From: Acidilobaceae archaeon
GTDB taxonomy: Archaea; Thermoproteota; Thermoprotei_A; Sulfolobales; Acidilobaceae
Assembly: GCA_027044005.1 (NCBI GenBank)
Contig: JALUDK010000329.1
Location: 1 to 26,558, forward strand
Direction of reading: 5' to 3'
Length of the DNA stretch: 26,558 nt
In this document: positions 7,947 through 12,415 of the stretch, piece after piece
How positions within the stretch are numbered: position 1 is the stretch's first letter
How the letters are laid out: the number at the start of each line of letters is the position of its first letter
The notes under the pieces: model-generated
What the model was told of the DNA's origin: nothing
Databases searched by the model: none
Seen by the model: the letters and a program-made list of their open reading frames with translations, nothing else
Position numbers and translations under genes: made by a program

Positions 7947-8423
7947 TTGGACAGTCAGAAGGCTGCGGCGCGCCCAGACTCTGGGGCTAACGTGTATAAG
8001 GAGAGTCTGAGGAATCTTATCCTGAGGATTCTTGCTGAGAGGCCTATGCATGGCTATGAGATTATGAAGATGATTGAGAAGGTAACCAGGGGTAGGTGGA
8101 GGCCCGCGGCGGGTACCTTATATCCCCTGCTGGAGCAGTTGAGGCGTGACGGGCTTATAGATGTAGATCGTGTGATGAGCAGCGGCGTCAGGGGTGGCCG
8201 TAAGGTTGTCTATAAGCTGACTGATGCTGGCTGGTCCAAGCTTGCAGAGTTCCTCATTAGCAAGGCTGACTATAAGATTGATACTCTAATATTCTATATA
8301 ATAGAGGGAGCGTATAGGCTTAGGGAGCGTGGGTTTAACGAGGAGTATGCTGAGATCTGTAGGAGGGTAGCGGAGGGCCTTAGAAGGATAGAGGCGGCTC
8401 TCGACTCTGGGTGCAGGGTTTAG
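7947..8423 (+). CDS. PadR-family transcriptional regulator
   Basis: LILRILAERPMHGYEIMKMI, GTLYPLLEQL and GRKVVYKLTDAG are PadR wHTH motifs. TTG start preceded by GGGGGT. Confidence 0.93.
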   Translation: MDSQKAAARPDSGANVYKESLRNLILRILAERPMHGYEIMKMIEKVTRGRWRPAAGTLYPLLEQLRRDGLIDVDRVMSSGVRGGRKVVYKLTDAGWSKLAEFLISKADYKIDTLIFYIIEGAYRLRERGFNEEYAEICRRVAEGLRRIEAALDSGCRV

Positions 8424-11400
8424 GCCCTCACTATGTAGAGGGACTTGTAGGGGTACCTGTCCAGCCTTGATAGCGCCTGGACGGTCTGGGGCGTCTCTCT
8501 GGCAACCACTATTATATACCCGTCGTCGAGTAGCCTAGTAACCTCTGTCGAGTGGCCTAGTATCCTGCGGTATGCGGCTATGCTAGGCTCTACAGGCACG
8601 CCGCGTGAGGCTAGCTCTTGTTTGAGCCTGTATGCTATGTCCTGGTCTTTGACGGCTAGTGTAACCCCGTATCTGCCGAGGACCTTGACCGCCTCTATTG
8701 TGTCCTGGATTACCTCCTCTATGCACTTGTCGATGGTTGTGCATTCCCTCCTCTTACCGCTGATCCTAGCTGTCTCTTCCTTGCCAGGCTGGTAGGTGAA
8801 GTAGTTCCTTATCCATTCTTTTATAGCCCTGTCTGCCGCCTGGGGGCCTCCTACCGACTTGGCTGCTAGCGCCTTTTCTAGCATTTCCTTTAGGTTGTCT
8901 ATCGATTCTATCTCTCCTGTGCTTTTCTTTACTAGCTTGACGAAGTCTTCCTTTCCTGGTACTGTTATCTCCTTTGGCTTTCTTATTGGGAACTCTATTA
9001 TTGCAACCTGTGTCCTGGCTGGGTTGTACTCCCAGGTTGCCCCAGTGCAGGGGCCGCTTGCTGCGATGATGTTTCCTGCTTCTATCCTTATCTCTCTGGC
9101 CCCGTTTGTAGTGCATGCCTCTATGCGTAGCTTCTCTTTCCTCCATAGCCTGGTCCTTGGTATTCCTGTGTGTGAGATCACGGTGTGTTTGTCTAGCCTC
9201 CAGTACCACTGTGAGTAGTCGTCGAACGCGTCTAGGTCTTCTACAGTGTATGCGGCTAGCTCTGCTTGTGTGATCCAATAGTCTAGGAGGCCTAGTCCTC
9301 TGAGTATGTCTAGTATCTTTATTGCCGTGGGTCCTCCTGCTATTGCTCCTACTGGTAGTATAACCAGTTCCTTGCCCTTGTACTTAGTGTTATTGACTAG
9401 TCTGGCTAGCGTGTTGTAGGTTTGGACTACGGTGCTTGGCCTCACTCTGTCCATTAGAGCCAGTCTCTTCTTTTCCTCGAAGTCTACCGGGTTGTACATG
9501 GTGGTTATCCATGCTCTTCTCCCGTCTCTCCCCGCGCGTCCAGCCTCCTGGTAGTAGTCTTCTGGGCTGTCCGAGGGGTATGCGTGTACTATCCACCTGA
9601 TTACGGGTATGTCGACTCCCATCCCGAAGGCCTTGGTAGCTACCAGGATCATCGAGCCTCCGCTCTCAACGGTCTTCTTGATCTCGCTCTCAATCCTTCT
9701 CCTGGCCGAGTTGCTCATCTGGCCATGGTATACCTCTACCCTGGTGTCGACGGTTTTCCGGATTGCCTCTGCTATAGTATCCACGTTTGCCCACGGGTTC
9801 TTCTCGCTCTTCACGTAGCCGGTGAATATCACTCCTATCCATGGTCTGCCCTCGGCTTCTGCCCTTTCCACGAGTCCCCTTACTATTTCTGCTAGGTGCT
9901 CTAGCCTCTCGTCTCCCAGCCCTGTGGGCTCTACGTCGAATACCAGTTCCTCTCTGATCGGGTCTAGCTTTAGGATTACAGGCTTCCTGTATCCTATCCT
10001 CTCCATTTTATCCGGGTCGGCTTCATACTCCTCATACTCCTCGACGCCTAGGGATTCTAGTATGTCCTTCGCCACTGCATGGGGGGCTGTGGCTGTGAAG
10101 AGTGCTATGGGGGGCCACTTCTTCTCGAGGGTATACTCGTATATCCTCTTAGCCATGTACAGGTAGCTCGGCCTAAACGTGTTGCCCCAGCTTGAGAGCG
10201 TGTGAGCCTCGTCTAGTACTATAAGGGAAGGGGTCGAGTCCTCCATTAGCTCCTCCAACTCTGGGTCCTGGAACCTCTCGGGGGTGACATAGAGTAGGTC
10301 GATCAGGCCCTTCCTGGCTGCATCTATTACTATCCTTCTTTGAACCCTGCTCAGGGTCGAGTCTATCTTGTATGCTATAAGCCCCCTCTCTACAGCGTTA
10401 GACACCTGGTCGTTCATCAACGACTTTAGGGGGGACACGACCAGCGTGTAGCCCCCGTAGCCGCTCGTGGTCGCTACCCTGCCAGCAACCTGGTATATGG
10501 CGCTCTTCCCACTACCTGTCGGGTATATTGAGAGGACTAGACCATGCTTCATCTTGCTGTAAAGGCTTGCTAGCACGTTTAGCGTGGCCCTCTGGTGCCT
10601 CCTGAATTCTAGGCCCTCGCCCCATAGCTTCTTGAACTCTTTATCCATCTCCTCCATTATTACTCTTTTGTCTACTACGTGTACCGTATTATCCCTCTTC
10701 TTATTGATTTTTACCATCTCCACGTTATCCATGAATCTTGCAGTCCTCGAGACTGTTATTCCACCTAGCTTGGATATCATCTCTACTATACTATCTTCCA
10801 ATATCTGTAACGCATCTATTCCATTATCCTTAACTATATGGGACACAGTGTCTGATCTTATCGTTGCTTCGGGGTACATACTGACTACGGATCCCATAGA
10901 TGAGTATAGTATGTCTGGCCTAACCTTCACCAAGTCCCATGTAGCCACTGCTACCTCTCCAGAATCGATCCACTCATCCACGCTATCCTCGTCTAGGATA
11001 CGCAGGCCTATGCTCTTACCCATCTCTATACCGATCCTGTTAGGAACTACTACAAGGCCGTGGCCTCCTAGGAACATTGCTGAGGCCCTTATATCTGCTA
11101 AGGGATTCGCTGCACCGTTACCCGCTATTATTGCCTTTATCTTACCGTCATCCCTACTCGATGTAACCCCCGTGATCGATGATACCGACTCGGGAACCAC
11201 GTAACGCGCTGTGGCCCTTATCTTCCTTCCATTTACCCTCTTGGGCCTGGGTATGTGTATCCCGTCATTAACTAGGCTCTTCTCGTATACGTTGAACTTG
11301 TTGTACCTAAGGCACTCTATTGTTGGCTTTATACAGTCTACTATAACCTCTCTCTCGTCCAGTATAGACGGGTATAGGGTTTGTAGCCATCCAAGATCTT

Positions 11401-12415
11401 GGGGTTCTACTTGTATGCATGGGGGTAGGGGCTCTGGCTCCTTCCTGATTGTCAGTGTCTTTGCTATCAGCGATGCGAGCTTAGTTTCCCCGTAGGACTT
11501 ACTATAATAGTAGGCCCTAGCTGGGTCTCCTGACCTTGCCTCTAGCATTCTTAGTGCTAGTAAGGCCTCATCCATCCTAGCCCCTATAACCTCTTCTATG
11601 CTTATCTTGTACGGCTTTAGTATTGGCATGCCTGCTCTGGGCCTGTCTGTTATGATCACACACCTCTTTGGCACAATTCGTGATATGCCACGAAACACCT
11701 CTAGGCCCCTGTATTCCGGCGGCGTACCCTCAAGTAGCCACACCTTGTCGCCGATCTCTAGGAAGAAGGAGGCCAGCCTCCTGATCACCTTGGTGGGCGA
11801 GGAGGGGTCCTCCTGAAGGTGGTATGCCACGCTAGATATGCTAGCAGGAATGTCTGGCGCCACGATCCTGGCTATCCTTTTCCCATCAAAACCTCTGGCC
11901 CGGCAACCCCACTTTACAACTACGGAGCCCCAAGCCTCTGGGGGGAGAACCCCCTCTACACCCGTGTTTATGAGTATCCTTGACACAGCATCCCTGGGAA
12001 GGTTCTTAGAGTCTATTATGAATCCATCCCAGTCTATGATCCTCCTGTACCTGCTACAGTATAGTACAATAGACTGGGGCTCCGGTAGCCTTAGGCCTAC
12101 CATGCTAGCAGCCTTCCATGCCTTATCCCACGCCCCCTCCAGGGCTAGGAACCGGAAGGCGTCCATGACCACCGGCGAGTCTAGGTGGCACCCGGACGAT
12201 GCAAGTGATAGGATGGGCTCGTAGAGGCCCCTGCGTGCTAGCCCCTCCACCACTTCCCGGCTCGGGCAGAGCCTCTTCGAGGCCAGCACGCCGCTGGCCG
12301 TGACCGCGGTCTCCATGCTATGGTCTACTGCCTCCTTTATGGCTTCCATCGTCGGCCTTAGCTTTAGTTTGAGCTTGAGTCTCAGTGTTGTCGCCGCTCT
12401 TAGTATCCGCTGCAT
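8420..12415 (-). CDS. recQ: RecQ-family ATP-dependent DNA helicase with ~600-aa N-terminal and ~350-aa C-terminal extensions
   Basis: FRRHQ (motif 0), PTGSGKS (10522-10502), LVVSPLKSLMNDQV, LLYVTPERF, DEAH (10213-10202) plus SWGNTFRPSY aromatic loop, TATA, YHG, VATKAFGMGVD, YYQEAGRAGRDG (to 9521). The start is uncertain, but a TATA-like GTTAATA lies about 30 nt upstream of ATG 12415. Confidence 0.92.
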   Translation of the reverse strand: MQRILRAATTLRLKLKLKLRPTMEAIKEAVDHSMETAVTASGVLASKRLCPSREVVEGLARRGLYEPILSLASSGCHLDSPVVMDAFRFLALEGAWDKAWKAASMVGLRLPEPQSIVLYCSRYRRIIDWDGFIIDSKNLPRDAVSRILINTGVEGVLPPEAWGSVVVKWGCRARGFDGKRIARIVAPDIPASISSVAYHLQEDPSSPTKVIRRLASFFLEIGDKVWLLEGTPPEYRGLEVFRGISRIVPKRCVIITDRPRAGMPILKPYKISIEEVIGARMDEALLALRMLEARSGDPARAYYYSKSYGETKLASLIAKTLTIRKEPEPLPPCIQVEPQDLGWLQTLYPSILDEREVIVDCIKPTIECLRYNKFNVYEKSLVNDGIHIPRPKRVNGRKIRATARYVVPESVSSITGVTSSRDDGKIKAIIAGNGAANPLADIRASAMFLGGHGLVVVPNRIGIEMGKSIGLRILDEDSVDEWIDSGEVAVATWDLVKVRPDILYSSMGSVVSMYPEATIRSDTVSHIVKDNGIDALQILEDSIVEMISKLGGITVSRTARFMDNVEMVKINKKRDNTVHVVDKRVIMEEMDKEFKKLWGEGLEFRRHQRATLNVLASLYSKMKHGLVLSIYPTGSGKSAIYQVAGRVATTSGYGGYTLVVSPLKSLMNDQVSNAVERGLIAYKIDSTLSRVQRRIVIDAARKGLIDLLYVTPERFQDPELEELMEDSTPSLIVLDEAHTLSSWGNTFRPSYLYMAKRIYEYTLEKKWPPIALFTATAPHAVAKDILESLGVEEYEEYEADPDKMERIGYRKPVILKLDPIREELVFDVEPTGLGDERLEHLAEIVRGLVERAEAEGRPWIGVIFTGYVKSEKNPWANVDTIAEAIRKTVDTRVEVYHGQMSNSARRRIESEIKKTVESGGSMILVATKAFGMGVDIPVIRWIVHAYPSDSPEDYYQEAGRAGRDGRRAWITTMYNPVDFEEKKRLALMDRVRPSTVVQTYNTLARLVNNTKYKGKELVILPVGAIAGGPTAIKILDILRGLGLLDYWITQAELAAYTVEDLDAFDDYSQWYWRLDKHTVISHTGIPRTRLWRKEKLRIEACTTNGAREIRIEAGNIIAASGPCTGATWEYNPARTQVAIIEFPIRKPKEITVPGKEDFVKLVKKSTGEIESIDNLKEMLEKALAAKSVGGPQAADRAIKEWIRNYFTYQPGKEETARISGKRRECTTIDKCIEEVIQDTIEAVKVLGRYGVTLAVKDQDIAYRLKQELASRGVPVEPSIAAYRRILGHSTEVTRLLDDGYIIVVARETPQTVQALSRLDRYPYKSLYIVRA

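Follow-up and report, generated by a model that had tools for sequence, protein, structure and literature searches.

A RecQ-clade helicase with a lineage-specific architecture in the archaeal family Acidilobaceae

We analysed a 26,558-nucleotide (nt) stretch of DNA from an Acidilobaceae archaeon (GenBank assembly GCA_027044005.1, contig JALUDK010000329.1, positions 1 to 26,558; hereafter the window) and focused on a large helicase gene at 8420..12415 on the reverse strand. We propose that this gene probably encodes the Acidilobaceae version of a RecQ-clade helicase, vertically inherited and with a predicted role in chromosome maintenance. It is a single unbroken open reading frame (ORF) with an ATG start, encoding 1331 amino acids (aa) plus a stop codon. 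The start methionine of its product, P0001, aligned with the starts of 34 orthologues, in which M1 is nearly invariant. A first-pass annotation of the window had described the 1331-aa product as carrying an intact RecQ core, and the motifs read in the translation, together with the conservation of their key residues in the orthologues, bear this out.

The central motor belongs to the RecQ clade

The active RecQ motor, as delimited by sequence and fold matches, covers aa 596-1010 (9386..10630, reverse strand) and consists of two RecA lobes (RecA1 and RecA2) followed by a helical hairpin. The translation of P0001 contains a motif 0 that ends at Q608, PTGSGKS at 632-638, VVSPLKSLMNDQ at 659-670, DEAH at 735-738 followed by the aromatic-rich loop SWGNTFRPSY at 742-751, TATA at 773-776, VATKAFGMGVDIP at 925-937 and QEAGRAGRDG at 956-965. 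Residues Q608, K637, D735, E736, H738, W743, F747, R748, R960 and R963 are invariant in the 34 orthologues, which share about 30% identity. The protein therefore has the superfamily 2 (SF2) core typical of RecQ, with motif 0, motifs I-VI and the aromatic-rich loop behind DEAH, and its closest relatives in sequence and in structure are RecQ proteins over other SF2 families.

Pfam recognised only generic domains in P0001, DEAD (626-782) and Helicase_C (877-965). Among PDB sequences the top match was E. coli RecQ (6.8e-37), with further matches to RecQ of D. radiodurans and other bacteria, BLM, RECQ4, RECQ5, RECQ1 and WRN. AlphaFold modelled aa 560-1331, with the 34 orthologues as input, at a predicted local distance difference test (pLDDT) score of 88.5; all 50 of the model's top 50 Foldseek matches in the PDB were RecQ-family chains, and it superimposed on the E. 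coli RecQ core with a root-mean-square deviation of 2.8 over 411 columns. The best NCBIfam models were recQ TIGR01389 (214.6 bits, short of the equivalog cut-off of 640.2) and recQ_fam TIGR00614 (180.7 bits); Lhr, Hel308 and SftH-type models reached just 25-36 bits. The central motor thus truly belongs to the RecQ clade, as the first-pass annotation had held, and is not of the Lhr, Hel308 or SftH type. That annotation had also considered that the core might cluster with Hrq1/SftH or Lhr, and we find that it clusters with RecQ.

The other helicases are encoded separately in the same genome. Its loci L002, L003 and L004, on other contigs, carry an Lhr-type gene (PRK13767, 386.7 bits), a DECH/SftH-like gene (TIGR03817, 279.6 bits) and Hel308 (646 bits), and the RecQ-clade enzyme therefore supplements these helicases and does not replace them. 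Membership of P0001 in the Lhr/Hel112 family was rejected, as it scored 25 bits against PRK13767 compared with 386.7 for L002 of the same genome, and so was membership in the SftH/Hrq1/MrfA (DECH) family (TIGR03817, 35.5 bits versus 279.6 for another gene of the genome). Hel112 (Saci_1500) of Sulfolobus, the enzyme usually cited as the crenarchaeal 'RecQ-like' helicase, is an Lhr-family helicase (PMC8301817). We also rejected it as the known equivalent of P0001: beyond the family of P0001, 281 of 284 class genomes gave no match to this protein at E<=1e-20. The source genome of P0001 has its own Lhr-type gene in L002.

Bacterial RecQ proteins (E. coli, 1OYW; C. sakazakii; D. radiodurans) have the same RecA-lobe motifs and aromatic-rich loop at 27-28% identity, but P0001 differs from them in having no Cys4 zinc subdomain, no Pfam RQC or HRDC, 590 extra residues before the motor and 320 unrelated residues behind it. 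Human RECQ4 and RECQ5, which gave strong structural matches to the core, lack the canonical RQC/HRDC set, of which Pfam gave no sign in P0001 either; their accessory domains are nevertheless different, and the C-terminal module of P0001 has no relative detected beyond its own family.

Distribution and phylogeny

Relatives were sought among 5.8 billion proteins, and 351 species genomes of the class to which the window belongs were scanned with a match threshold of E<=1e-20. The protein search recovered about 50 full-length relatives of 1270-1400 aa, among whose sources are metagenome-assembled genomes (MAGs) of Desulfurococcales/Acidilobaceae, Stetteria hydrogenophila, Acidilobus sp. 7A, Caldisphaera sp. 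and Aeropyrum pernix (P0037); the genome scan added Thermodiscus and Candidatus Tiamatella. All of the carrier genera (Aeropyrum, Acidilobus, Caldisphaera, Thermodiscus, Stetteria and Tiamatella) are Acidilobaceae in the NCBI taxonomy. In Acidilobaceae, a family of archaea from hot springs and vents, full-length orthologues were found in 63 of 66 genomes, the three without a match being 55-77% complete, and matches beyond the family were limited to 3 of 284 class genomes. Overall, 67 of the 351 class genomes matched, 64 of them in this one family. True RecQ is thus rare in the class, in line with the earlier statement that Thermoprotei usually rely on other helicases. One copy of the helicase is encoded in the source genome, a MAG that is 78% complete.

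A maximum-likelihood tree of the core (92 sequences) split all archaeal proteins from the RecQs of bacteria, fusions included, along a 100/100 branch with a length of about 1 substitution per site. On the archaeal side, a 100/98 clade unites the Acidilobaceae proteins, with a variant of ~900 aa and the Tiamatella variant of ~1460 aa branching within it, and a small sister clade has 100/99 support. The closest sequences outside the family are thousands of ordinary bacterial RecQs that form a flat plateau at 33-38% identity on the core, and no stand-out bacterial donor was detected among these relatives. The base composition of the gene is unremarkable and matches that of the window. Given the long, fully supported branch, the near-universal presence in the family and the lack of a close donor, we conclude that the helicase is an old, vertically inherited core gene of Acidilobaceae. 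If a transfer from bacteria to archaea happened, it would predate the family.

Literature on RecQ in Aeropyrum, Acidilobus, Caldisphaera and Desulfurococcales, together with SF2 censuses, yielded no description of this protein; one census paper records merely the existence of a RecQ-like family in archaea (PMC5349461). Reviews of archaeal DNA repair present Hel308/Hjm and Lhr (Hel112) as stand-ins for RecQ (PMC11894792, PMC8301817). Nor did we find a paper that describes such a multi-module architecture, which the first-pass annotation had singled out as unusual. The same annotation had allowed that orthologues might be both widespread and characterised: they are widespread in Acidilobaceae, including Aeropyrum pernix, but the enzyme appears to be uncharacterised and, apparently, unstudied.

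The N-terminal 590 residues resemble a decayed exonuclease and an inactive helicase module

The predicted structure of the N-terminal 590 aa is confident (pLDDT 90.6; predicted template modelling score 0.91). A profile of this region retrieved nothing meaningful from PDB sequences, and Pfam gave no match, including none to RNase_T, in the N-terminus of any of the 34 orthologues. The model begins with a helical region at aa 1-110 (12086..12415, reverse strand, as are all parts of the protein described below; pLDDT 90.6) that contains the invariant C50 and C76 and has no sequence or fold match. A small beta-alpha domain follows at aa 111-250 (11666..12085), with the invariant C120 and C171. An ESM Atlas feature search with aa 1-250 was uninformative.

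Members of the sister clade are P0055 and, related to it, P0269-P0273 (five proteins, one of them labelled a Korarchaeota MAG); further genes of this type occur at L051:725-4831 (a Pyrodictium sp. MAG) and at L053:2243-6487 and L122:1755-5864 (two other Thermoproteota genomes). The sister-clade proteins are 1370-1415 aa long. Because their N-termini hold invariant D-x-E, H-N-x4-D and H-x4-D motifs and Pfam detects RNase_T in 6 of 7 members, the sister clade apparently has an intact DEDDh exonuclease ahead of the same RecQ-clade motor, a layout like that of WRN. In hhalign comparisons, the Acidilobaceae N-terminus (from aa ~160 to aa 350-518) aligned with the second half of the sister-clade exonuclease and the region behind it, at a probability of 87% against P0055, 29% against a 4-sequence sister profile and 67% against a 7-sequence profile (A6). 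At the aligned catalytic positions, the ExoII Asp is replaced by W162 and the ExoIII His by S206, and the ExoIII Asp falls in a deletion, so that P0001 does not have intact DEDDh catalytic residues. We suggest that the Acidilobaceae N-terminus is probably homologous to the exonuclease region of the sister clade and that aa 111-250 are probably a decayed DEDDh (DnaQ/RNase T-like) exonuclease.

WRN and the sister clade have the same order of parts, an N-terminal DnaQ-type exonuclease region and then the RecQ motor, and the sister clade shares a core-tree clade with P0001; the exonuclease catalytic residues are, in contrast, gone in P0001 and in all 34 family members. Shared ancestry of the archaeal fusion with eukaryotic WRN is not supported, and the fusion may be convergent. 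Three bacterial proteins of 1545-1878 aa (P0057, P0058 and P0065) are single chains that unite an RNase_T exonuclease with a DinG-type helicase (Helicase_C_2/DEAD_2) and with a RecQ core; their domain logic is that inferred for the archaeal ancestor, with no sequence relation by hhalign. P0057 was tried as a relative of the N-terminus and rejected (hhalign probability 0.2%).

The remainder of the N-terminal half comprises a first alpha/beta lobe at aa 251-420 (11156..11665), helicase-like without ATPase motifs and with invariant D257, P259, R294, C361 and C368, and a second, ATPase-dead RecA-like lobe at aa 421-590 (10646..11155), the sole N-terminal part retained in the ~900-aa variants. Foldseek matches of the N-terminal model in the PDB were to DinG, BLM, XPB, Hel308 and XPD, with modest scores, and in the ESM Atlas the nearest shapes for aa ~216-590 were RecQ families. 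Searches of AFDB clusters and Swiss-Prot folds gave weak helicase-type matches and no analogue of the whole module. The N-terminal consensus has no Walker A or Walker B motif. Between aa 419-537 and the RecA1 of P0001 itself there is a weak profile match (E 0.0019, probability 14%), whose alignment runs collinear with motifs I, Ia, Ib and II. With moderate confidence, we assign aa 250-590 to an ATPase-dead SF2 helicase-like module.

A private C-terminal module and conserved cysteines

Pfam found no RecQ_Zn_bind, RQC or HRDC in P0001. The stretch between aa 369 and 1100 is free of Cys, and P0001 has no Cys4 zinc subdomain after RecA2; four conserved Cys (1101, 1123, 1225 and 1231) lie downstream of the position of the RecQ zinc site. 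At the position of RQC, the secondary structure of the model suggests a putative winged helix with a beta-hairpin (aa 1011-1060; 9236..9385; invariant G1042 and Y1046), including a helix-helix-hairpin element at aa 1017-1058. The model continues with a beta-rich domain (aa 1061-1145; 8981..9235; invariant C1101 and C1123), a long antiparallel helical hairpin (aa 1146-1210; 8786..8980) and a terminal alpha/beta domain (aa 1211-1331; 8423..8785) that contains C1225 and C1231 and no conserved acidic residues.

A profile of aa 1010-1331, searched against 1.84 billion representative proteins, retrieved 44 proteins, all of this family or fragments of it. The C-terminal 320 aa gave nothing in a PDB profile search, and the ESM Atlas feature search of aa 1010-1331 was uninformative. 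When the profile was compared with sister-clade C-termini by hhalign, just the winged-helix-like stretch of about 50 aa was common to P0055 (65%), and nothing was shared with P0054. On the basis of these comparisons, the C-terminal module appears unique to the Acidilobaceae family.

Ten of the 12 Cys of P0001 (C50, C76, C120, C171, C361, C368, C1101, C1123, C1225 and C1231) are near-invariant in the 34 orthologues, and all ten lie outside the motor. In the Tiamatella-type variants the N-terminal module is retained (hhalign 98.6%), yet all six N-terminal Cys are gone together; three of the four C-terminal ones are still present. Such an all-or-none loss hints that the Cys act in common sites, whether metal centres or disulfides. 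The ten Cys are probably ligands of zinc or iron-sulfur sites or form structural disulfides.

Gene neighbourhood

A TATA-like AT-rich element, TTAATACTATA, lies at 12443..12453 on the reverse strand, 28-38 nt upstream of the ATG. It is a possible archaeal promoter, from which a transcript with a short leader or no leader could start. Around the helicase gene, the window encodes a solute-binding protein, a class V FBPase, TIM, a winged helix-turn-helix (wHTH) protein, a PadR-family regulator, a DUF1286 protein, one ORF without a family, GcvT and IlvD. The PadR gene (7947..8423, forward strand; Pfam PadR 72.9 bits) is convergent with the helicase gene, with an overlap of 4 nt between the two 3' ends. 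Of the neighbours named in the first-pass annotation, PadR and DUF1286 (Pfam, 40 bits) were recovered, but the ORF labelled JAMM/MPN+ (13071-13778, forward strand, 235 aa) had no Pfam, NCBIfam or PADLOC match at the thresholds used. The ORF at 14993-16501 (reverse strand, 502 aa) has no Pfam family. Rfam returned no family at E<=0.1 in 7600-12700, including the proposed box C/D small RNA sites at 7792-7869 and 12499-12564. PADLOC detected no defence-system component in five neighbouring products; the wHTH ORF (7323-7670) weakly matched CasR/CARF-type regulator models (E >= 1e-4) over its HTH region.

The PadR gene adjoins the 3' end of the helicase gene in genomes of seven Acidilobaceae genera, and no other neighbour of the helicase is conserved. 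Three complete or near-complete genomes of another group have it about 1.8 kb from the helicase, and it is unlinked in the Acidilobus and Caldisphaera groups. No PadR orthologue was found at E<=1e-15 in three helicase-bearing genera. PadR is 49-55% identical between genera, compared with about 33% for the helicase. Two PadR orthologues that adjoin the helicase in a pair of related genomes (G084:C188:6150-6599 and G098:C18:26922-27365) contain one in-frame stop each (TAG and TAA, respectively) and may be pseudogenes or reflect assembly errors.

Proposed role and alternative interpretations

Since the motor (aa 596-1010) keeps every RecQ residue for ATP binding, hydrolysis and coupling to single-stranded DNA (ssDNA), including the aromatic-rich loop, the enzyme would most likely translocate 3'-to-5' along ssDNA and is predicted to unwind forks, D-loops or junction-type intermediates. 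A lineage-specific shell would surround the motor in place of the Cys4 zinc subdomain, RQC and HRDC. Behind the motor, this shell would consist of the winged-helix-like element, the beta domain, the long helical hairpin and the private alpha/beta domain; ahead of it, a 590-aa scaffold would combine the decayed DEDDh exonuclease with the ATPase-dead helicase-like lobe pair. The scaffold probably descends from an ancestral exonuclease-RecQ fusion that is apparently still intact in the small sister clade, and it may serve as a DNA- or partner-binding platform, by analogy with the inactive cassettes in Brr2 or RecC. Brr2, and RecC in RecBCD, are tandem-cassette helicases with one inactive cassette, and the possible likeness lies in an ATPase-dead helicase-like module beside an active one. 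They belong, however, to other superfamily branches, and in P0001 the dead module precedes the active one. A more elaborate version, which we regard as rather unlikely, describes a degenerate WRN-like fusion in which the exonuclease pocket and the dead cassette were rebuilt around Cys-ligated, possibly iron-sulfur, metal centres; the N-terminal half would then be a regulator that senses redox state or DNA structure, and PadR would act in the same stress circuit.

Several points weigh against a RecQ helicase of chromosome maintenance. The enzyme is known here from sequence and predicted structures alone, and its recQ_fam score misses the TIGR00614 cut-off of 219.8 bits. The hhalign probabilities behind the exonuclease homology are just 29-87%, with ExoI beyond the aligned stretch, and both the metal sites and the winged helix are putative. 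The presence of Hel308, Lhr-type and SftH-like helicases in the genome does not specify a niche for P0001. Furthermore, the PADLOC models DpdF (up to 231.7 bits) and PsyrT (189.3 bits) score on the core (aa 590-1014) as RecQ models do, so that sequence alone cannot separate a repair RecQ from a defence RecQ-like helicase. One alternative accordingly places the protein at the centre of an immune system not yet described, as a defence helicase of the same kind as PsyrT, a toxin helicase, or DpdF, which belongs to the Dpd DNA-modification system; its large, multi-domain build and an NCBIfam DpdF match of 124 bits would fit this reading. That match is nevertheless far below the cut-off of 550, the DpdF and PsyrT matches span the generic RecQ motor alone, and neither dpd nor toxin-antitoxin genes provide a context. 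The neighbourhood is one of FBPase, TIM, GcvT and IlvD, without a PADLOC defence component in the five neighbours scanned, and a near-universal, single-copy, vertically inherited core gene of one family is the opposite of a patchy defence island. The defence function raised in the first-pass annotation is therefore very improbable.

The same annotation had suggested a horizontally acquired and since ameliorated gene, and a recently captured bacterial RecQ fusion would fit the contrast between bacteria, where RecQ is common, and archaea, where it is rare, as well as the existence of large bacterial fusions such as the RNase_T, DinG-type and RecQ proteins of 1545-1878 aa. Against this stand the best bacterial core identity of ~38% followed by a flat plateau of thousands, the long 100/100 stem of the archaeal clade, the hhalign probability of 0.2% between the N-terminus and P0057, a composition that matches the window, and a distribution over 63 of 66 family genomes that fits descent from the family ancestor; we consider recent transfer highly unlikely. 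An ancient transfer, before the Acidilobaceae ancestor, is possible. Alternatively, RNA, R-loops or transcription complexes may be the main substrates of the motor, or it may be a translocase or remodeller in place of an unwinding helicase, perhaps in connection with PadR. PadR abuts the 3' end of the helicase gene in seven genera without other synteny, the DNA-handling RQC and HRDC domains went undetected by Pfam, and the literature on eukaryotic RECQ5 and Sgs1/BLM attributes to them roles in transcription and at R-loops. However, the two genes are convergent and hence form no operon, Acidilobus and Caldisphaera hold them far apart, three genera have the helicase with no PadR orthologue detected, and the aromatic loop that couples the motor to ssDNA is invariant. 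We consider this alternative unlikely and favour a RecQ-clade helicase of chromosome maintenance.

Implications

The finding changes no major paradigm and offers a lead for specialists. One entire family of hyperthermophilic Thermoprotei, to which the long-sequenced Aeropyrum pernix belongs, has a conserved true RecQ-clade motor. In this enzyme the zinc, RQC and HRDC accessories appear to have been replaced by a private C-terminal module, and ten conserved Cys hint at metal sites. For the evolution of helicases, it suggests an exonuclease-RecQ fusion that probably decayed to a scaffold in Acidilobaceae and that a few MAGs, Pyrodictium-type ones among them, apparently preserve intact. The enzyme may thus serve as a thermostable target for asking which task RecQ performs alongside Hel308 and Lhr in the same archaeon.

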